From the IMG/VR virus record IMGVR_UViG_3300000530_000014, positions 4,968-68,967 of that record: a stretch of DNA of 64,000 nucleotides; one strand, written 5' to 3'. Below, in pieces: positions 4,958 through 39,267 of the stretch; the first letter of the stretch is position 1; each line of letters begins with the position of its first letter. A program made the position numbers and the translations under genes. Below the pieces are notes generated by a model. The model was not told the origin of the DNA. It was given only the letters and a program-made list of their open reading frames with translations, and made no database searches. Origin of the DNA: a virus.

Positions 4958-5947
4958 TTAATTGGCCCAAACATCACCCCAATTTCCGGATAAAGATCCT
5001 TTAGCATAATCAGTAGCACGATTCTCAAAAAAGTTGGTATGTGTTGGTGCATTAATCATTTCTTCTACCCAAGGTAACGGATTTCTTTTTACTTTGAATA
5101 TACCTTTTAGTCCTAAAGAAATTAATCTTCTATCAGCTATATATCGAATATATTTCTTTACATCATCTGCTTCTAATTTTTCCATCGAACCCATAGAGAA
5201 AGCTAAATCAATAAATTTATCCTCAAGTTCTACCATTCTTTCAGCAATAGTATAAATTTTGGATTTTAATTCATCGTTCCAAATTTCTCTATTTTCTTCT
5301 ATATATGTTCTAAATAATTTGATCATTGATTCACAATGTTGTGTTTCATCAACGATTGACCAAGTAACGATTTGACCCATACCTTTCATCTTACCATTAC
5401 GAGGAAAATTCAATAACATAATGAATGAAGAAAATAATTGCATACCTTCTGTAAATGCACTAAACACTGCTATATGTGTTGCTGTATTTTCTTTTGTTGT
5501 ATTCTTAGATGAAATATCCATAACATAATCATGTTTCTCTTTCATTTCCGCATACTCAAGAAATTCATTATATGTTGTTTCTGGTAATCCTAATGTTTCA
5601 ATAAGATGTGAATAAGCAGCAATATGTAATGCTTCTCTTGCAGCAAATCCTAACAACATCATACGAACTTCTGGTTGAGGAAAATATGGAAGATAATTCT
5701 TAACATAACCGCCAGCTACATCAATATCACCTTGTGTGAAGAATCTAAAGATATTTGTTAAAAAATGTTTTTCCTCTTTGCTTAATTTCTTTTTCCAATC
5801 TTTCATATCCTCTAACATAGGCACTTCTGTATGTAACCAATGTGATTGTTCATGTTTCAACCATGAATCATATGCCCATGGATAACTGAACGGTTTAAAA
5901 TATGTTCTCTCATCAGATAAATTTAAATCTTTTGCTTTTTTAATCAT
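4958..5947 (-). CDS. nrdB: ribonucleotide reductase class Ia beta subunit
   Basis: FFTQGD, EALH, radical Tyr (AAYSHL), EGMQLF, DETQH, NFFE; start adjusted to MIKKAK. Confidence 0.95.
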   Translation of the reverse strand: MIKKAKDLNLSDERTYFKPFSYPWAYDSWLKHEQSHWLHTEVPMLEDMKDWKKKLSKEEKHFLTNIFRFFTQGDIDVAGGYVKNYLPYFPQPEVRMMLLGFAAREALHIAAYSHLIETLGLPETTYNEFLEYAEMKEKHDYVMDISSKNTTKENTATHIAVFSAFTEGMQLFSSFIMLLNFPRNGKMKGMGQIVTWSIVDETQHCESMIKLFRTYIEENREIWNDELKSKIYTIAERMVELEDKFIDLAFSMGSMEKLEADDVKKYIRYIADRRLISLGLKGIFKVKRNPLPWVEEMINAPTHTNFFENRATDYAKGSLSGNWGDVWAN

Positions 5948-29865: not shown

Positions 29866-30513
29866 TTAAGGATTTCCTATTAGTTTTTCGGGAAATTTAC
29901 TGAAACTAACTTGGAAATTGACCCTTAGCCCCGACATATTTTCTACACTATGTATCACTCTTGTATCTAATAGATACCAACATTTTGCAGGCCCATTAAC
30001 TGATTTGATCAATTTTAGATGCGGTCCTCTGTTGACAGCTAGTCCAGGATCTCTAAAAACTGGATGACCTTCCTCTTGCCAAAAAGATAATGTAGTATTG
30101 CCACCGGTTTCTACATTATATAATAACACATACTTTCTTGTGGTATCTGTGTGTGGAAGTTGCTCGGTATCAAAAAACATAATTCCTGAATTATAATCAT
30201 CGAATTCGTCAATGATATTTTCACGGACCCAGTTTTCATATTCACTGGTAAATCTATGCCTGACATTTGGATTTGACGCCATTGGCTTTATCCAATTATA
30301 TTCTTGATTTTTCCAATCTGTCACTGTATCGACCCGCAAATAGTTCTTGTCGTCTTGCTTAAACAGGGGTTGTGCAGGACGATACACTTTATCAATTTTT
30401 TCTACTAGATGATCGGGCGGATGTGGTAAGTGATCTAAAACTATGTAATACCAATCAGTCTGTTGCATTGATGATCTCCTTACCCCAAAATGCAGAATTC
30501 CATAGTCGTTCAT
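29866..30513 (-). CDS. 2OG-Fe(II)/cupin-fold oxygenase-like protein
   Basis: LPHTD (HxD) ... distal IHSV, followed by LRVNFQVSF (conserved Arg). Confidence 0.6.
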   Translation of the reverse strand: MNDYGILHFGVRRSSMQQTDWYYIVLDHLPHPPDHLVEKIDKVYRPAQPLFKQDDKNYLRVDTVTDWKNQEYNWIKPMASNPNVRHRFTSEYENWVRENIIDEFDDYNSGIMFFDTEQLPHTDTTRKYVLLYNVETGGNTTLSFWQEEGHPVFRDPGLAVNRGPHLKLIKSVNGPAKCWYLLDTRVIHSVENMSGLRVNFQVSFSKFPEKLIGNP

Positions 30514-30688
30514 GTAAGAAATACCAGGAAAATACGATAATTAATTCTCCTAACGCCATTTTTGTTGCGAGATGTACATCGCCGTTAAGATACATAGATA
30601 ATGCAAACATAATTGACGATGTAGAAATCCTCCAGGTGATCGCTTTTACAAGGCTGCGTAGTCTAAATTCGTTAAATTTAATAGTCAT
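30455..30688 (-). CDS. DUF2061-like small membrane protein
   Basis: RSLVKAITWR...YFLHERLW signature. Confidence 0.8.
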   Translation of the reverse strand: MTIKFNEFRLRSLVKAITWRISTSSIMFALSMYLNGDVHLATKMALGELIIVFSWYFLHERLWNSAFWGKEIINATD

Positions 30689-30734: not shown

Positions 30735-30754
30735 AAAAGCCCGCCGAAGCGGGC
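30735..30754 (-). terminator. intrinsic terminator after dctP-like gene
   Basis: GCCCGC-TTCG-GCGGGC-TTTT (UUCG tetraloop). Confidence 0.85.
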
Positions 30755-30764
30755 CTGGAGTTGA

Positions 30765-31709
30765 TTAAGAATTTTTGATTTTAGCTACTAGGCCGTCGGC
30801 AAAGTAGTTGTCGTACATGCTGTAGACTTCGCTAGTAACAGCTTTGAATTTAGCTAGCTCTTCTTCGGACATATGCACAACTTCAACACCTTTGGCTTTG
30901 CATTCTGCTAAGATATTGGGAATATCAGCAACGCTTTCACGACGTTCGGCGCGAGCAGCAACAAAAGCAGCTTTTGCTAGGATGTCCTGCACTTCTGCAG
31001 AGAACTGTGCAAAAAAGTCTTTGTTGACGATGATGCTGGTCAAGAACAGGCTGTGTGCTGTATCGTTGACTACTTTAAAGCTCTTGTATTGGTCTAATGG
31101 GAAAACACGCACATATGTGCTTTCGCCGGCATCAATAACACCTGCATCGGCTGCTTGGTTCATTTCTTCTAGGGCGATGTTTTCAAAGGGTTCTGCACCT
31201 AGCAGTTTAAATGTATCAACTGCCACTGGGCTACGGCTAGTACGAACACGTTGACCGCGCCAGGCTTCTACTGTATCTGCACGGAAGTTAGCAGGAACAA
31301 CACGATATCCACCTGAATATGTAAAGCTCATTGCTTTGATATTAGAGTTGGCACTTACACCTTCTAGCAATGATTGACCAATTTCACCTTCAAGCACACG
31401 ATCGGCATGTGAGTGATCTGTGAAAATAAAAGGTAAATCTAAAGCGTGTAAATCTTTGTTGTAGTCAGCTAACCATGTGGTATAGATGTGGCTCATTTCA
31501 ATAGCACCGCTGTCGATCAATGACATCAAGTCATTTTTTGTGATGCGTTTGCCATCGTTGTATTTGTTAGCATAGTCGGTCAAGCTCAATACTTCGATAT
31601 TGAACATACCGTTGGTTTTTTCGTTTACTTCTTTAGCGAAACGATCAGCTACTTTTAGAAACAAACCAATTGGTTCGTGTGCGATAACCCATTTAACATG
31701 ATGTGTCAT
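30765..31709 (-). CDS. TRAP-transporter DctP-like solute-binding protein lacking signal peptide
   Basis: LDLPFIF, GGYR, RGQRVRT (carboxylate-binding Arg), G..DAGEST, T.HSLF; begins MTHHVKWV with no hydrophobic leader. Confidence 0.85.
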   Translation of the reverse strand: MTHHVKWVIAHEPIGLFLKVADRFAKEVNEKTNGMFNIEVLSLTDYANKYNDGKRITKNDLMSLIDSGAIEMSHIYTTWLADYNKDLHALDLPFIFTDHSHADRVLEGEIGQSLLEGVSANSNIKAMSFTYSGGYRVVPANFRADTVEAWRGQRVRTSRSPVAVDTFKLLGAEPFENIALEEMNQAADAGVIDAGESTYVRVFPLDQYKSFKVVNDTAHSLFLTSIIVNKDFFAQFSAEVQDILAKAAFVAARAERRESVADIPNILAECKAKGVEVVHMSEEELAKFKAVTSEVYSMYDNYFADGLVAKIKNS

Positions 31710-31866
31710 TTTTTATTCCTTTAAAAGTAAAATATTAGTGATTTCGCTAGTAGATACTTCTACGTACGGCTCGGCGTTCTGCATGTTACACAGCAGTAAA
31801 AAGGTATTACCTTAGGCGTCGATTTAGATCCGGCGTCAGAGATGCTGGCGCTGCTAAGATTATTTA
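31710..31866 (-). promoter_or_regulatory. long 5' leader of dctP-like gene: late promoter, short hairpins, four CGCC repeats, possible 36-aa uORF
   Basis: TAAATA at 31866-31861; stems AAGGT/ACCTT, CTGC-TGT/ACA-GCAG, GTAGA/TCTAC; uORF 31870..31760. Confidence 0.5.
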
Positions 31867-31879
31867 TCATTTTTTCACA

Positions 31880-33175
31880 CTAAATTAATATTTGTGTCAA
31901 TTTGCAATCTTTTATTAAATTAATCTTTTCTTTAGGTCTACCAGTCTGTGTTTTATAATCCTTGTTATCAAAAGCCAGTTTAGGTTTAGGTATATTGCAG
32001 GATCCTATGTAATAAAAAGGACTAGTATTAGGAATAAACCCTACTTTTTGTCCCATTTGTTCGGAAAAAAACTTATCATCGATCTTGTCTGTTAAAAATT
32101 TCAATCCGTTCTCCCATACAGTGTAAATCTCGGTTCCCTGCAGGTTAGTGTAAAACCAATGATCCATTTCATTATAAAAACTATTAGTAGGTTTTGCTGT
32201 CTGCCAAGTATCTAGATCATAATCTGGGTAGATTATGCTTTTGACTAACCATTCGTATGCAGTACGATGTTGTATGCTGGTATTGGGGTAAGAAAATAAG
32301 TGCTGTAAATTATGATTTTGTGGTTGCTCAAAATAGTTACGCACCATATGTGCTTGCTTACAGATCATTTCTGGTAAATCGGGAGTCCAGTAGAATAATT
32401 CTGTGGTTATGTTTGTATAGTCACCGACTACCGGGCTTGGATGGTTTGCCTGTACATCCATAAAATATAGATACCAAGCTCCGTTGATGACAGTCAGTTT
32501 AGGTTTATCAACCCCGTATAAAGCGCAGATTTTCTTACCGGTGTCTGCGAGATTTCGCTGTTCTTTATTTCCTAGATTATCATGTTTAATACCGTGCCCG
32601 GGTTGGAACCAATCTCTAGTAGTAAATACCCAAGATTCATCTTTCATGTAATCGTCATTTAGCAGATTCTCGCTGTAGTCGTAAAAAGTAGTCTTGGTCT
32701 CAGGAAAGTTTTCAGAGATCCATTTAAACAACGGTAGTCCGGCAAATTTCCATTCACTGAGTGTATTTTCTGCTTTAGTATTGTAAGGATCATCTGTGAC
32801 CCCTTTGTCAGTTTGTTTAGGGTATCGGAAGATGACTTCATCGAGATGTATGCCATTGAGCAAGAAACTGAATATAGCCGTGGTGCTGTCTCCGCCCCCG
32901 CTGGCTTCAATCCTTATATAATCGTAAGAATCTCTTAATTGTTGTGCTCGTATACGATATAATTCTCTCAGTGACGGTACAGGTTCAATGGACCAATTAA
33001 AACTGGCGAATTCTCGATTATTGAAAATCCATTTTGGATATACATTTAATTCAGTGGCGCGCATTAATGCTGCTGGTTTAGAAAAAAATATTTCGTCGTT
33101 GACTCGGTAATATCCAAGTTTTTTGTTTTCTTCTATCTTCCTATATATAGATTTATCCATTGTTTTTTTACTCAA
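31880..33175 (-). CDS. PP-loop (AANH superfamily) ATP pyrophosphatase-like protein, paralogue 1
   Basis: IEASGGGDS PP-loop; GVDKP; full-length similarity to 33168..34382. Confidence 0.72.
   Translation of the reverse strand: MSKKTMDKSIYRKIEENKKLGYYRVNDEIFFSKPAALMRATELNVYPKWIFNNREFASFNWSIEPVPSLRELYRIRAQQLRDSYDYIRIEASGGGDSTTAIFSFLLNGIHLDEVIFRYPKQTDKGVTDDPYNTKAENTLSEWKFAGLPLFKWISENFPETKTTFYDYSENLLNDDYMKDESWVFTTRDWFQPGHGIKHDNLGNKEQRNLADTGKKICALYGVDKPKLTVINGAWYLYFMDVQANHPSPVVGDYTNITTELFYWTPDLPEMICKQAHMVRNYFEQPQNHNLQHLFSYPNTSIQHRTAYEWLVKSIIYPDYDLDTWQTAKPTNSFYNEMDHWFYTNLQGTEIYTVWENGLKFLTDKIDDKFFSEQMGQKVGFIPNTSPFYYIGSCNIPKPKLAFDNKDYKTQTGRPKEKINLIKDCKLTQILI
32844..32893. repeat. 50-nt exact duplicate of 34063..34112 inside the PP-loop paralogues
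   Basis: agatgtatgccattgagcaagaaactgaatatagccgtggtgctgtctcc occurs at both sites. Confidence 0.9.
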
Positions 33176-34382
33176 ACCTATCTTGTATTTTAACTTTTAT
33201 CATTCTTTCTTTAGCAGGAGTTGCATCTCCGATGCAGTAAAAAGGACTAAGGAAACCTACAAACCCTACAGGTCGTCCTAATTCATAATTAAAATATTTA
33301 GAGTCAATCATGTCTACCAGCAGTTGTTGCCCTGCTAGTTGTTTTTTGTATGCATCTGATTCGGAAAAATTTACTGCGAACCAATGATCCATTTCGTTGT
33401 AAAAACTATTAGTAGGCTTCGCTGTTTGGAAAGTCTGCGGATCGTAATCGGGATATATCAGCGGTTTTACAATCTGTTCATAGGTCGTCCTGTTTGAGAT
33501 ACTGCTGTTTGGCCATCGTAACAGGTACTGTAGATGTTGATTTTCGTGTCTCATGAACCAGTTTCTAATGATATGAGCCTGTTTTTGCGGTATAGCAGGC
33601 AAATCAGCGGTCCAATAAAAGTATTCGATTGATATATTTGTGTATCCTTCAGTTACAGGGTTGCTGTGGTTCGCCTGTAGATCTAGGAAGTATAGATACC
33701 ATTTGTTATCTTTGATACACATCTTAGGTTTATCGATACCATAAAGCACACAGATTTCTCGACCGGTATCAGCTAATTTCCTATGCTCGTTCATACCAAT
33801 TGGATCATGTTTAAATACATGAGCTATTTGGAAATAGTCTTTGCCTTTCAGTACCCAGGTATCATCAAAATCACAGTCTAGTATAAATTCGCTGTAGTCG
33901 TGTATGGTTATTTTAGTCTTAGGATAATTTTTTTCTATCCATTGTAACAAAGGTTTTGCAGCAAACCTAAACTCACTCAAGGTATTTTCCGGTCTAGTGT
34001 CATGAGGATTGTCAGTTACATCTTTTTCGCCTTTGCTTGGATATCTAAAAACAACTTCGTCTAGATGTATGCCATTGAGCAAGAAACTGAATATAGCCGT
34101 GGTGCTGTCTCCACCGCCACTGGCCTCTACTCGTATCCAATCATAGCGATCTCTTAGTTGTTGTGCTCTCTGACGATATAACTCTCTTATGTCGTCGGCT
34201 GGCTCCGTTGCCCAATCTAGCATTCCGAATATATCATTATTAAAATTCCAGTGCGGGAATTGATTAGTCTGTGTCGCTTCTATCAGGGCCTGGGATTTAA
34301 TATAGTGGATACGGTCTCCTACTGTATAAAATCCTAACTTAGGATCTTTTTTAAAATATTTTTCTGTTAAATCAATGGTCAT
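33168..34382 (-). CDS. PP-loop (AANH superfamily) ATP pyrophosphatase-like protein, paralogue 2
   Basis: VEASGGGDS PP-loop; GIDKP. Confidence 0.72.
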   Translation of the reverse strand: MTIDLTEKYFKKDPKLGFYTVGDRIHYIKSQALIEATQTNQFPHWNFNNDIFGMLDWATEPADDIRELYRQRAQQLRDRYDWIRVEASGGGDSTTAIFSFLLNGIHLDEVVFRYPSKGEKDVTDNPHDTRPENTLSEFRFAAKPLLQWIEKNYPKTKITIHDYSEFILDCDFDDTWVLKGKDYFQIAHVFKHDPIGMNEHRKLADTGREICVLYGIDKPKMCIKDNKWYLYFLDLQANHSNPVTEGYTNISIEYFYWTADLPAIPQKQAHIIRNWFMRHENQHLQYLLRWPNSSISNRTTYEQIVKPLIYPDYDPQTFQTAKPTNSFYNEMDHWFAVNFSESDAYKKQLAGQQLLVDMIDSKYFNYELGRPVGFVGFLSPFYCIGDATPAKERMIKVKIQDRFE

Positions 34383-35032
34383 TTACCTAATCTCTGTTGT
34401 CTTGTTGATTGACATCCTGCTAAGACTACATTGTCTAACCAGTGGTTGTCAATATATTTTACATACTTGTGATTAGCATCTTCTGTGATAAATCGAGATA
34501 ATTTTTCAGGATTTGTTTCAACGGGGAATCTTAGCGTCCTGCCTACCCAATTTATATAATGCTCGCGATGCAGGAAAAATGCTTCGTGGTCTAGAAAGTG
34601 CACAGGCAGTCCGCTGGGGATTAATATGTTATAGTAGTAATCCTGTGCAATAGGTGTGGTGTGTTCTTTTCTTACTCTCAACTGCTGTAGCTGATTTATA
34701 TTCTGATCACGTACTATCACAGCTATTTCTACTTCAACTCCGAATAACCGTGCACGTTTGGCTACTTCCAGTATTTTAGGTGTATAGCGCACACCGTCGA
34801 AGAAAAAAGGGCAACTGACATTAGCTAAAAAATATTCGCCATTGGCGAATTTATCGGCGGATAACTTTTCTGGGTCAACCCAGTATTCAGCAAAAGGTTC
34901 TTGATCGCTAGGAACCCAGTATTGATCCTTCAACTCCTCCCATCCCGAGACCTCAGGATGTAGGCTTAATATCCTGCTGAATAAGTGATTTCCTGACCCT
35001 TGGGGACCTGTGATGATCAATAGTTTTTTCAT
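34379..35032 (-). CDS. sulfotransferase/P-loop-fold protein
   Basis: ITGPQGSGNHL N-terminal loop, IVRD motif; paralogous to 35029..35670. Confidence 0.6.
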   Translation of the reverse strand: MKKLLIITGPQGSGNHLFSRILSLHPEVSGWEELKDQYWVPSDQEPFAEYWVDPEKLSADKFANGEYFLANVSCPFFFDGVRYTPKILEVAKRARLFGVEVEIAVIVRDQNINQLQQLRVRKEHTTPIAQDYYYNILIPSGLPVHFLDHEAFFLHREHYINWVGRTLRFPVETNPEKLSRFITEDANHKYVKYIDNHWLDNVVLAGCQSTRQQRLGK

Positions 35033-35670
35033 GGTTTTTGTTTAAAAATATGCCCGTAGTGATTACCTGCATCCAATGGGTTTTCTTCTACATATTTTAT
35101 ATATTTTGCATTGGCATCTTGTTCTAATATTTCATTGATTTTCGGGTTATCGTGCGCTATAGGAATGATCAGATCTAAAGATCTGAGATAGCTTGAACGA
35201 TAAAGATGCAGTAATTCGTAACTAAGGAAACTAGCTATCGGACGTAGATTTTCTAATTCCTCTAAGAACATAGGCAGAGTAGGCTCTGATCTTATCCTAG
35301 TCTGTTGTTTGTGTAAGATATTCTGATCTCTTCCTATGACTGCTATCTGTACCGCTATATCTAATGACATCAGTTGTTGCAGGAATCTTCGTATATCTAG
35401 GCGGTATAAAGGATTTTCCTCTGATCCCGGAATGCCCAACGGAACACTGATACCGGTCACATAATAATCGCTTTGATTCCAATCAAATGTTTTTAATAGT
35501 CCAGGATCGCGCCAGTATTCAGCAAATGGTTCACAGAATCTGTGTGGTTCCCAGTAGTTTTCTAATAGACTACGCCAACCGTATACTTGTGGATGTAGTG
35601 CAAATATCTTGCTCCAAAGATGATTTCCTGCACCCTGTGGTCCTAAAACCACTAGCATTTTTTTCTTCAT
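35029..35670 (-). CDS. sulfotransferase/P-loop-fold protein
   Basis: VLGPQGAGNHL, IGRD, FLSYE, DAN.KYIKY. Confidence 0.6.
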   Translation of the reverse strand: MKKKMLVVLGPQGAGNHLWSKIFALHPQVYGWRSLLENYWEPHRFCEPFAEYWRDPGLLKTFDWNQSDYYVTGISVPLGIPGSEENPLYRLDIRRFLQQLMSLDIAVQIAVIGRDQNILHKQQTRIRSEPTLPMFLEELENLRPIASFLSYELLHLYRSSYLRSLDLIIPIAHDNPKINEILEQDANAKYIKYVEENPLDAGNHYGHIFKQKP

Positions 35671-36341
35671 GCAATAGTTTTTTTAAGTTCTGTTAAAAAC
35701 TTTTGTGTCTGATCAGTGATAATACCGGTTAACTGTAGTGTAACACGAGGATGTTTACCGGCATTAGCGGTACAGTGCGGAACATTACGCCAATCAAAGG
35801 TATGCACTTCACCAGCTTTCCACCCACGATGATGATAGTTACCATACTCCCAAAACTGCCCTGGTTGCCAATCTGTCAGTTGTACAAAATAACGTCCTAC
35901 TAATTCAGGATGACTAGGAAACCATTTGTACAATTTGTCGATGTGTAGGTGGAACAGTTGTCCTGGCATCTGTACATGTATACGTGCCATTGAATCAACT
36001 AAGGCGAACGAATCTGCGATTTTTTGCAAGTTAGGACTTAATGTCCAATCTAGATTGGTTATAGTTACCTTAGGATCTATGCCCAATCTTTCTAGATCGT
36101 ACTCTTCATCTTCTAGTTCAGGCTTAGGTACATCAATTCCTGACCCTTTAAATCCCCGCGTTTCCCAGTTAGCCGGTTTACTACGTGTGATAATCTCTTC
36201 TATGTCAGAGGTAAGGTTAGATACATCAACATTACCTAGGTGTACAACGGTATCCCACCGTGGATCCATGCGATCAACATCAAAGTGATACGCACTTTTT
36301 TCCACCAGTTTGTCCCAGCTGCTTTTACGTTCTTGGCTCAT
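35667..36341 (-). CDS. AspH-like 2OG-Fe(II) oxygenase/cupin
   Basis: FHLHID (HxD) ... VPHCTAN, PRVTLQLTG; start adjusted to MSQERK. Confidence 0.7.
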   Translation of the reverse strand: MSQERKSSWDKLVEKSAYHFDVDRMDPRWDTVVHLGNVDVSNLTSDIEEIITRSKPANWETRGFKGSGIDVPKPELEDEEYDLERLGIDPKVTITNLDWTLSPNLQKIADSFALVDSMARIHVQMPGQLFHLHIDKLYKWFPSHPELVGRYFVQLTDWQPGQFWEYGNYHHRGWKAGEVHTFDWRNVPHCTANAGKHPRVTLQLTGIITDQTQKFLTELKKTIA

Positions 36342-36958
36342 ATGATTTTTACCCCTACATCTGATCTTATATAGTCTTGCTGATATTCCTGTGGAGGTTC
36401 TGTTATGTGTAGCGCACGACAAGCAGATAAATTATCATTGACTATGTAACCGCCATACTGATTCCAGGCTGTTAAGATATCGGCGTTTTGTCGCTTAATA
36501 TGTTCGGCCATGTGTTTTAAATCGATATAGTATTTGTTGTACAGTGGATAGGTGATATCAAAATGTCCGCATTTAACCCACCAACCTAGACAGGCATCGT
36601 CGTCTCTGTGCACTAAAATCACCGGACAGTCGGGCCAGTTTTTCTTTAGAAAGTCAACATGATGTGCAAAAACATGACTTTTGATTATGCGGACACCCGT
36701 GCCTGAGAATGGGCGATCGAATTCCTGCTCACACTCTTCTCGGGTATGTTGATCTAATCGATCAAACCAATCACCAAACTCCATACCTGGATCAAAGTAT
36801 GCGCCTAGATGCATGAGATCTAAGGTTCCCGGCGCATCATGATAATAAGTACGTGCTTCGGAATAATCACTTTGATCGAGGTCGGGACTGTAATAAATGT
36901 TCTTACAGACGCTGCTCCATTTTGATCCTGGGGCGCCTGCGATAAAAATGTATTTCAT
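36338..36958 (-). CDS. sulfotransferase/P-loop-fold protein
   Basis: FIAGAPGSKWS, IIKSH, ILVHRD resemble 5'-PSB, catalytic KSH and 3'-PB elements. Confidence 0.6.
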   Translation of the reverse strand: MKYIFIAGAPGSKWSSVCKNIYYSPDLDQSDYSEARTYYHDAPGTLDLMHLGAYFDPGMEFGDWFDRLDQHTREECEQEFDRPFSGTGVRIIKSHVFAHHVDFLKKNWPDCPVILVHRDDDACLGWWVKCGHFDITYPLYNKYYIDLKHMAEHIKRQNADILTAWNQYGGYIVNDNLSACRALHITEPPQEYQQDYIRSDVGVKII

Positions 36959-36959
36959 A

Positions 36960-37508
36960 TTATCCTCTTAGAAAATCTTCTATTTCTTCTGGTAACCAAG
37001 GTTTAATCATGCGTTCAGGATGCCAGGTAACGCCTGCGATTTTTCCATCTATCCATGATTCGACATTACCGTCGTCATCTAAGGCCAGTATCTTCCCAGA
37101 AGTGTGTATTCGAGAAATAGTTTGATTATGATAACTGTTTACTTCTTGTGCTGACCCACGATACCATATATTATGCACGGTATCTGAGTGTCTGTCAACT
37201 GGTACGACTGATCCACCTAATAGATCTATTAATAAAAAACTTCCATGACAGACACCAATGATAGGTTTTGATTGTTTGAGCATTTCAGCGGAAAGTTTTG
37301 TTTCAACAGTACGACGTAATACGCTGTCGTCGCCGCCGGTGATGATTAATAGATCTATACTATCTGCTAGTTTTTGGAAATCTTGTTTTAAATTGTTTGG
37401 AATAAAAGTAAGCATATGATCCTCGAGATAAGCATACCAGCTTTGATCTAAAGAATCATATGCTCTGTTGCGATGATATAGTATGCGTTGACTCAATCCT
37501 ATTTTCAT
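36960..37508 (-). CDS. class I glutamine amidotransferase / gamma-glutamyl hydrolase (peptidase C26-like)
   Basis: ITGGDD, IGVCHG (nucleophile Cys), VNSYH, WHPE (His-Glu). Confidence 0.88.
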   Translation of the reverse strand: MKIGLSQRILYHRNRAYDSLDQSWYAYLEDHMLTFIPNNLKQDFQKLADSIDLLIITGGDDSVLRRTVETKLSAEMLKQSKPIIGVCHGSFLLIDLLGGSVVPVDRHSDTVHNIWYRGSAQEVNSYHNQTISRIHTSGKILALDDDGNVESWIDGKIAGVTWHPERMIKPWLPEEIEDFLRG

Positions 37509-38544: not shown

Positions 38545-38573
38545 AATATAAGAGGCATTGCGCCTCTTATATT
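38545..38573 (-). terminator. terminator hairpin after ferritin-like gene
   Basis: 12-bp perfect stem AATATAAGAGGC/GCCTCTTATATT, T-run after. Confidence 0.75.
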
Positions 38574-39267
38574 ACCAACCGTAAGCGGCAGCTACTAGTT
38601 CGCGACCTGATTCGACAGCAACGGTGTTTTTGCATGAGATTTCATACAAGTCTTTACGCATTTTAGCAACTAATTCTTCGCAACGAGCAAAGTCAGCTTC
38701 TGTTTTCAATAATTGTTCTAATTTACGTGCACCGATTTTAGCATGGAAGCCTTCGTCACGAGCGATCTTAGCATAAGCACCGCTGATGAATTTATCTTCG
38801 ATACATTCTGCCATCTGGAACCAAACAGCTTCAGCACGACCTTCGGCAACTAGTTGATAAGCAGCTAGTGCAACAGCATCGTTTTCAGCGTCATATTTTT
38901 CTAACAAGCCAGCACCTTTAGCTGTGGGTTTAGCAGCTTCAGCGGCAATAGCAGCTTCAACATCTACTGGTGCACCTTGGATGTGCTCGATAACTTCTTT
39001 AACTAAACGGAAGTGTACGGCTTCGTCCATGGCTTGTTTGGTCAATAGTTCTAGTTCAACTGGATCTGCGTCAGCTGGCATCTGTGCGATTGCGTTGCTG
39101 ATTTCAACCATGTTCATGCGTTCGTTGACCATACGACCGATAAAGTGCTCAACTAATTCTTCTTGAGCTGGTTTGCTATCAAAGTAGGCTTTGACGTTGA
39201 TCTTGCTAGCTTGGAACAGTGCTTGGTTCTCAGCTACGATTTTTTCAACAAATTGTTTTGCGTTCAT
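38572..39267 (-). CDS. ferritin-like diiron-carboxylate protein
   Basis: E...DEAVH...E...DEGFH: two ExxH motifs on a four-helix pattern. Confidence 0.8.
   Translation of the reverse strand: MNAKQFVEKIVAENQALFQASKINVKAYFDSKPAQEELVEHFIGRMVNERMNMVEISNAIAQMPADADPVELELLTKQAMDEAVHFRLVKEVIEHIQGAPVDVEAAIAAEAAKPTAKGAGLLEKYDAENDAVALAAYQLVAEGRAEAVWFQMAECIEDKFISGAYAKIARDEGFHAKIGARKLEQLLKTEADFARCEELVAKMRKDLYEISCKNTVAVESGRELVAAAYGW

Follow-up and report, generated by a model that had tools for sequence, protein, structure and literature searches.

A leaderless TRAP DctP-type binding protein encoded beside PP-loop enzymes and behind a structured leader RNA in phage DNA

By definition, TRAP binding proteins are exported subunits of transporters, and they often co-purify with their ligands. 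Enzymes built on binding-protein folds are also known, among them MqnA, MqnD, THI5 and DszB. PP-loop enzymes of the type considered below activate a carboxylate or carbonyl by adenylation before converting it into an amide or thio derivative. Among the members of binding-protein profiles, cytosolic single-domain proteins of other function exist (PMC9602780). Within the TRAP family, the carboxylate arginines have been described with the residue numbering of structure 4P47 (PMC11668362), and the SiaP residues that dock on the membrane subunits include D58 and S60 (PMC9352664) as well as K143 and D181 (PMC9971032). The literature searched yielded neither an example of a DctP-type cytosolic enzyme or carrier nor a description of a leaderless phage DctP, which is the subject of this work; the tree-based origin, the second independent loss of the leader and the genome-wide DctM tests are new here.

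The window is a stretch of 64,000 nucleotides (positions 4,968 to 68,967 of IMG/VR record IMGVR_UViG_3300000530_000014) from a virus record of 70 kb that is ~20% complete; its features are collected in Table 1. The open reading frame of interest starts with MTHHVKWVIAHEP, and its product matched PF03480 over residues 19-298 in a profile search (E 5.9e-46; 157.5 bits, cut-off 23.4). It also scored above the cut-off of NF037995 (112.5 bits, cut-off 50) and below that of TIGR00787 (120.7 bits, cut-off 175). The AlphaFold model adopts the two-lobed TRAP binding-protein fold, and a structure search with this model gave superpositions on TRAP binding proteins at TM 0.85-0.88 and 17-24% identity. Its first beta-strand comprises residues 3-9, so the protein begins at the mature fold.

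Table 1. Features of the window around the DctP gene (positions are those of the window)
Feature	Positions	Strand	Basis or remark
2OG-Fe(II)-oxygenase-like protein (HTD...H)	29866..30468	(-)	Atlas structural look-alikes of 2OG-Fe(II) families, TM 0.55-0.6
DUF2061 small membrane protein, recurrent neighbour	30455..30688	(-)	PF09834; in 10 DctP loci; leader RNA heads DUF2061 in 6 loci
Intrinsic-terminator-like UUCG hairpin	30737..30756	(-)	U-run follows; -14.9 kcal/mol, z -3.1
Leaderless DctP-fold protein, 314 aa	30765..31709	(-)	PF03480, pLDDT 97.5, TM 0.87-0.88
RBS AAGGAAT overlapping in-frame TAA	31713..31721 (AAGGAAT 31721-31715)	(-)	sequence
Structured 5' leader RNA, ~115 nt, six helices, riboswitch-like candidate	31743..31857	(-)	covariation
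T4-type late-promoter-like motif (G)ATAAATA	31861..31868	(-)	~6 nt before first paired base of leader RNA
PP-loop (SGGGDS) adenylating-enzyme-like protein, paralogue 1, directly upstream of DctP	31880..33160	(-)	53% identical to paralogue 2
PP-loop (SGGGDS) adenylating-enzyme-like protein, paralogue 2	33168..34382	(-)	model pLDDT 88.9; 776 homologues
Rest of accessory module: two P-loop proteins, oxygenase-like, sulfotransferase-like, class I glutamine amidotransferase	34379..37508	(-)	profile matches
Ferritin-like diiron protein	38572..39267	(-)	window's strongest codon bias; own ATAAATA 86 nt upstream

A preliminary description of this DNA had reported an AAGGAAT ribosome-binding site and no hydrophobic leader, and both observations held when alternative starts were checked. 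The RBS-like AAGGAAT is present, and the in-frame TAA that overlaps it (31715-31713) leaves a single codon before the ATG, so an upstream start cannot add a leader and this route is ruled out. The homologues in related phages agree: by hydrophobicity and reading frame, none of 120 close homologues has a hydrophobic leader, and the 48 viral loci scored, in which a stop precedes Trp7 by 7-25 codons, are all leaderless. The TctC genes that stand behind the same leader RNA carry hydrophobic leaders and thus provide an internal control for the leaderless call.

The window had also been said to lack membrane TRAP genes, and this extends to the whole 70-kb record (~20% of a genome), which contains neither DctM nor DctQ. 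Both were absent from all five complete carrier genomes of 162-174 kb, and DctM was absent from 11 genomes of 315-375 kb (ten of them at least 90% complete), six of which carry DctP. Altogether, no DctM was found in 10 near-complete carrier phage genomes, with DctQ looked for in five. The exception is one phage group (L043-L045), in which dctQ and dctM lie two genes upstream of the leaderless DctP; the transporter there has its own leader-bearing DctP, without significant similarity to the leaderless one. One of these loci (L044:5227-9117) encodes a complete TRAP transporter (DctQ, DctM and leader-bearing DctP) followed by the leaderless DctP, with three PP-loop genes before the transporter. 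At 59 bacterial loci, one query pair detected no dctQ/M within 8 kb, and DctM was absent altogether from 10 of 22 carrier metagenome-assembled genomes, whose completeness is not known. With the leader route closed and cognate membrane TRAP genes lacking, the earlier view that this is not a classical exported TRAP subunit stands, and the phage DctP is very probably not a subunit of a TRAP importer.

A protein exported by a non-classical route and working with a host or phage DctQM would explain the full DctP fold, the gene order in L043-L045 and the retention, as mapped by sequence only, of the Glu equivalent to SiaP E172 (E182 in 101 of 120 homologues; E181 invariant). Yet the transporter of L043-L045 is already served by its own DctP, no partner was found at the bacterial loci or in 10 of the 22 carrier metagenome-assembled genomes just described, and on the same mapping the equivalents of the other SiaP docking residues (D58, S60, K143 and D181) vary among the 120 homologues, with a 9-residue insertion at the alpha-2 docking region. 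We regard such a partnership as hardly plausible.

Compared with the TRAP DctP family (PF03480 and NF037995; HiSiaP, OaIseP 8T9T and Oant_4429 4P47), the phage protein shares the fold and much of the pocket. The arginine singled out earlier as carboxylate-binding, in RGQRVRT, is R156, which aligns in sequence with Arg173 of PDB 4P47, as R136 does with Arg152; both are kept in 120 of 120 close homologues, and in the wider leaderless clade just 53% of members keep R156. E196 and H219 correspond to the neighbouring Glu and His of the TRAP pocket (alignment to 4P47, numbering of PMC11668362). On the other hand, besides the missing signal peptide and dctQM, the insertion near the docking helix and the score below TIGR00787, the same alignment shows the pocket Asn213 replaced by S197 and the aromatic lid (position 196) by L180, each in 120/120. 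H11, E12, H74, Y76, Y131, R201 and S220 are invariant in the same 120 proteins, H11, E12 and R201 being additions relative to the TRAP family, and conservation reaches at least 98% at 167 positions. The subfamily-specific cleft set consists of H11, E12, Y76, Y131, R201 and H219. An equivalence between Y131 and IseP Tyr153 was dropped, as their offsets from the arginine differ. Because the cleft residues are invariant while most docking equivalents vary, the ligand cleft appears to be under more selection than the transporter interface.

Such a cleft could also be catalytic. MqnA/MqnD, THI5 and DszB likewise combine a leaderless binding-protein fold with a place in a biosynthetic cluster, although they belong to a different subfamily and catalysis by the phage DctP is hypothetical. 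The protein would then be an enzyme of the same pathway, with H11, E12, H219 and R201 as catalytic residues. This would fit the near invariance of H11, T130, S132, H219, T224, E255 and R256 throughout the subfamily, in exported and leaderless members alike, the replacement of the pocket Asn and aromatic lid by S197 and L180, and the precedent of cytosolic proteins with other functions among binding-protein profiles (PMC9602780). The top fold matches listed, however, are TRAP binding proteins throughout, and biased codons together with a dedicated transcript would suit a stoichiometric role better than a catalyst, so that we consider an enzyme unlikely.

The gene neighbourhood is dominated by the two PP-loop paralogues. 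The best fold matches of paralogue 2 are weak (carbapenam synthetase, beta-lactam synthetase and GMP synthetase ATPase; E 3e-4 to 2e-3, TM ~0.2-0.3), and by these weak matches the pair appears to belong, distantly, among the adenine-nucleotide alpha-hydrolase-type enzymes. Paralogue 2 is related to the PP-loop family that adjoins DctP in T4-like phages (HH probability 94.9, 83 columns). The proposed link between DctP and its adjacent cluster was borne out in most homologous loci: a PP-loop (SGGxDS) gene adjoins DctP in 40 of 49 viral loci and lies at most four genes away in 44, with adjacency in 36 of 45 when copies of this phage are left out. About 30 of the DctP loci come from related T4-like phages, and the loci are therefore not independent. 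Five complete genomes have one to three members of the PP-loop family each, and in 5/5 the best match abuts DctP. Similarly, in an independent set of loci found through the RNA, a window-type PP-loop gene is present within 6 kb in 30 of 38 DctP loci, and in 13 of the 14 that are well flanked. The link is not obligatory, since L116, a relative of 322 kb that has DctP in the same position, lacks a PP-loop gene within 8 kb, its locus containing TctC, an oxygenase, a P-loop gene and DUF2061, and since five bacterial loci pair the leaderless DctP with an MFS transporter and a 2OG-like gene instead.

Other members of the window's cluster also recur beside distant leaderless DctPs. The 2OG-like product is 50-54% identical to that of the gene directly upstream of the leaderless DctP in these five bacterial loci, and a 2OG-like gene is found beside a distant leaderless DctP there and in L119. 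Homologues of the gene at 35667-36341 and of the P-loop pair flank DctP in L116 and L119, and a homologue of the diiron protein directly precedes a distant leaderless DctP in L118, with two homologues in G003. Given this recurrence, the cluster behaves like a toolkit whose parts are reshuffled, not like a fixed operon. Within the accessory module, the glutamine amidotransferase match is above its cut-off and that to Sulfotransfer_3 below it.

Two further associations were observed around phage DctP genes. In L007 (3427-6297) and ~30 similar T4-like loci, a radical SAM/SPASM enzyme is encoded just upstream of DctP, among tail-type genes, and about half of these loci also encode a Cys/Asn-repeat peptide; the combination resembles a RiPP maturase system, with scores below every NCBIfam peptide-maturase cut-off. 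An AMP-binding ligase, a short-chain dehydrogenase and a BKACE-family enzyme recur together near the leaderless DctP in three different phage contexts (L006, L028 and L116).

Several features suggest that the DctP gene is built for high expression, which is the form in which the earlier claim of abundance can be upheld. The UUCG terminator previously assigned to the gene was recovered as a hairpin followed by a U-run (30756-30737), which a simple terminator scan missed, and a similar hairpin follows the DctP gene in most homologous loci. In most of them it lies between DctP and the downstream PP-loop gene, so co-transcription is not necessary. The reported preference for gct, ttc, aac and atc was confirmed in part: relative to the other phage genes, AAC (12/17, p 0.003) and ATC (12/18, p 0.02) are enriched, and GCT and TTC are not significant (p 0.48 and 0.45). 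Arg CGY (13/13, p 7e-5) and the avoidance of ATA (0/18, p 3e-4) are significant as well. Upstream stands an ATAAATA motif, which we take to be a late promoter from its function in T4. Of 52 ORFs, 10 have a motif of this type in the 170 nt preceding them; shuffled sequences gave 3.1, and none of 500 shuffles reached 10. TAAATA precedes 132 of 135 scored RNA copies, partly by design of one search pattern. A sigma-70 promoter scan of the window showed no excess over shuffles. In one mine-drainage metatranscriptome, contigs match at 100% identity over 30874-31038 and 31157-31577; this is a contig-level, query-chosen observation, and the contigs may be DNA.

Counter-defence genes are normally early, and this late-type motif bears on the analogy with phage signal-sequestering proteins that the preliminary description had drawn. 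A sponge for a host signal or defence molecule would resemble Tad1, Tad2 and Acb2 in being phage-encoded, soluble, cytoplasmic and a putative small-molecule binder, and the phage DctP is in addition apparently abundant and highly conserved, and three arginines in it could bind a phosphate; in some TRAP proteins, glycerol phosphates are bound between both arginines (PMC11668362). Nevertheless, its fold and size are unrelated to those of Tad1, Tad2 and Acb2, no sequence or fold match to these sponges was found, the matches listed being TRAP proteins, and its context in phages and bacteria is one of enzyme clusters, with bacterial relatives in acyl-activation and amidation clusters. The analogy was not upheld, and a sponge appears quite improbable.

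Between the late-type motif and the gene lies a structured RNA, whose structure emerged from comparison only, single-sequence folding of the leader giving no signal (z 0.92). The 158 nt from ATAAATA (31867) to the ATG are conserved before DctP in L037, L051 and L070, even though the L070 protein is just 43% identical. Two pattern scans of IMG/VR recovered at least 144 distinct copies. In 100 copies, the six-helix structure, which was derived from the same sequences scored for covariation, has 94.7% of cells paired, compensatory changes in 20 of 28 pairs and a covariation of 0.468, against 0.184 in shuffled and at most 0.098 in slid alignments; the long-range pair 34:111 is G-C in 92 copies and A-U in 6. 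GACG, UUU and AACGCC form invariant unpaired or core strands, and the invariance of 26 positions is in part a product of the search patterns, in which they were fixed. Varying pairs contain more G-U than A-C, so the sense strand is favoured. With model R1, which had the window copy in its training set, that copy scores 98.8 bits. Searches of Rfam 15 with two copies, at gathering cut-offs and at E<=10, gave no relevant match. A coding role was rejected, with leader lengths spread evenly over the three frames and 75 of 108 copies having no open frame, and so was a dispersed repeat, with 1-2 copies per genome.

The carriers of this RNA are phages of 315-375 kb. It was absent from the 162-207 kb DctP carriers tested and is therefore not required for the DctP protein. 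Among 150 Polynucleobacter-family genomes, with 24 candidates scored per genome, it was found in one phage-like contig only. The 22 full metagenome copies listed all have 31-45% GC, and nearly all follow TAAATA. Among the copies listed, the first gene behind the RNA is DctP in 38, TctC in 25, TauD-like in 11 and DUF2061 or PP-loop in 6 each, others being porin, SBP_bac_8, OpuAC/NMT1, TctA, MFS, desaturase and radical SAM enzyme genes. The median distance from RNA to start codon is 31 nt, and a PP-loop gene lies within 6 kb of 83 of the 144 copies listed.

Like riboswitches and orphan cis-regulatory motifs of Rfam 15 and the phage RNAs of Fremin et al. (PMC10690425), the main text of which mentions neither DctP nor TctC, this is a covarying multi-helix 5' leader with invariant unpaired bases, and like riboswitches it precedes interchangeable transport and small-molecule genes. 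It differs in having been found in phage-like DNA only, after a late promoter, and in lacking a consistent expression platform: a competing hairpin was flagged computationally in ~12 of 112 copies, with none evident in the window copy, and terminator-like hairpins using the RNA 3' strand were seen by eye in L125, L128 and L275. It is thus riboswitch-like in position and anatomy, a candidate only, and may instead act as a protein-binding or stabilising leader. The exported binding proteins and porins that it heads point to an envelope or uptake theme. Variants of the RNA were also observed. In ten loci (L181, L240, L242, L261, L262, L265, L266, L271, L273 and L279), the central domain is swapped and the 5' hairpin and 3' end are kept, mostly before radical SAM and TauD-like genes; a shortened form without the long-range helix and last hairpin occurs in L070, L126, L168, L171 and L177, always before DctP; and the central domain is duplicated in tandem in L125 and L244.

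These exported companions behind the same RNA, together with the late promoter motif and the strong codon bias, would also suit a binder that is associated with the virion or released at lysis, such as a particle metabolite sensor or a post-lysis scavenger, for which a leader would be unnecessary because lysis would release the protein. In ~30 T4-like phages, moreover, DctP stands among very long genes that we take to be of tail/baseplate type, upstream of what are presumably neck and terminase genes. Against this, no anchor or fusion has been added, most homologues measuring 313-316 aa, phages whose gene sets are unrelated still share the protein at 66-85% identity, as two Patescibacteria bins do at 73-75%, and the linkage of DctP to enzymes recurs in bacteria, which have no virion. 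In our judgement, this is an unlikely role.

We favour, with a probability of about 45%, a reading in which the phage DctP is an abundant late cytoplasmic organic-acid carrier for the phage ligase module, under control of the leader RNA. The gene would be transcribed late as its own message and the protein made in excess, accumulating in the cytoplasm and binding a small organic acid, a carboxylate or possibly a sulfonate. There it would hold or buffer what the adjacent ATP-dependent ligase(s) and oxygenases consume or produce; these enzymes would form a phage small-molecule or surface-modification module. The leader RNA would govern expression of the DctP gene, plausibly as a sensor of one of the module's metabolites. 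Against this reading stand the optional nature of the PP-loop link, the relatedness of many of the loci, the terminator between DctP and a downstream PP-loop gene, the loss of R156 in part of the wider leaderless clade, the envelope or uptake theme among genes behind the RNA and the scarcity of competing hairpins. As far as sequence can tell, the probable task of the protein is to handle an organic acid within the infected cell, not to import one. Among the options offered by the preliminary description, a substrate carrier for the adjacent cluster is thus the best supported; its points that the protein departs from classical export, lacks cognate TRAP genes, is built for high expression and is linked to the cluster stand, its sponge analogy does not, and the leader RNA and the Bdellovibrionota origin were missing from it.

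A broader proposal, tentative and on the doubtful side, is that freshwater-type jumbo phages possess a late small-molecule regulon, in which a module of ligases, oxygenases and binding proteins is under the control of a phage-specific class of metabolite-sensing riboswitch, and a TRAP binding protein from predatory bacteria serves as intracellular carrier (or catalyst) for the metabolite sensed. If this were true, the ligand of DctP would point to that of the RNA. The protein is soluble and easily expressed, and one experiment could name a metabolite of the phage pathway; its ligand, once named, would also be the first candidate to bind the structured RNA, which is uncatalogued and phage-restricted. 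Export was lost on at least two occasions in a large, tightly conserved clade whose members keep company with adenylating enzymes, which suggests a second use of the TRAP binding fold, and annotations of these phage genes as auxiliary genes for nutrient uptake are probably wrong.

The search for DctP homologues returned 780 proteins, the best 120 at 78-85% identity, with no close homologue among the cultured phages of INPHARED. An identical protein is encoded on contigs of 181 kb and 340 kb, and the window therefore comes from a jumbo phage. The record itself may be a chimera of two phages. Its G+C content is 25-32% before ~15.3 kb of the window and ~40% after, and positions 1-~15,300 have their own lysis-type cassette, homologous to that at 24.8-28.7 kb (GH19 lysin pair, E 1e-78).

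The nearest cellular relatives belong to Bdellovibrionota, Elusimicrobiota and Myxococcota and form an exported, previously undescribed 'W-x-x-A-H-E-P' subfamily with 35-47% identity and the same cleft residues. Like the phage protein, they have no dctQM nearby, and their neighbours are acyl-activation clusters (ACP-like proteins, AMP-binding ligases, MBOAT proteins), NMT1-type ABC systems or AsnB-like enzymes. Most cellular members keep a classical signal peptide, whereas the phage clade has lost its leader and sits behind a late promoter; among 150 representatives, 72 have a hydrophobic leader, 52 have none and 11 have a non-hydrophobic extension. In trees, whose root rests on one long outgroup branch, the main leaderless group falls inside a cluster (support 98) of leader-bearing Bacteriovoracaceae and Bdellovibrionales proteins, its own monophyly being moderately supported (0.98 in FastTree; SH-aLRT 91 and 49 in two subsets). 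The phage clade thus appears nested among exported, dctQM-unlinked Bdellovibrionota proteins. A second leaderless group, from Myxococcota, Elusimicrobiota and Planctomycetota, is separate from the main one and has an AsnB-like amidotransferase within ~4.6 kb in 5 of 6 loci. A single origin of both groups was rejected (AU p 0.018, under a simple model and with groups named after a first tree). These phylogenies imply at least two losses of the leader, in both cases next to PP-loop adenylating enzymes.

Some leaderless DctPs are found in bacterial bins. Two Patescibacteria bins (L054 and L055) carry the protein at the 73-75% identity given above, with a PP-loop gene four genes off in L055. The cassette in which an MFS transporter and a 2OG-like gene accompany the leaderless DctP (L056, L057, L058, L061 and L100) comes from bins of Bacteriovorax/Bdellovibrio and from one gammaproteobacterial bin; it is nested in the phage-dominated clade and possibly moved back from phage. 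Phage-like contigs with a leaderless DctP or the leader RNA occur in a Polynucleobacter bin (L069, L097 and L281), a weak hint at the host or mis-binning. Finally, a second, divergent leaderless DctP paralogue, in tandem or elsewhere, was observed in L025 (10958-11983; ~37% identity), L042 (10992-12011), G018 and G019.
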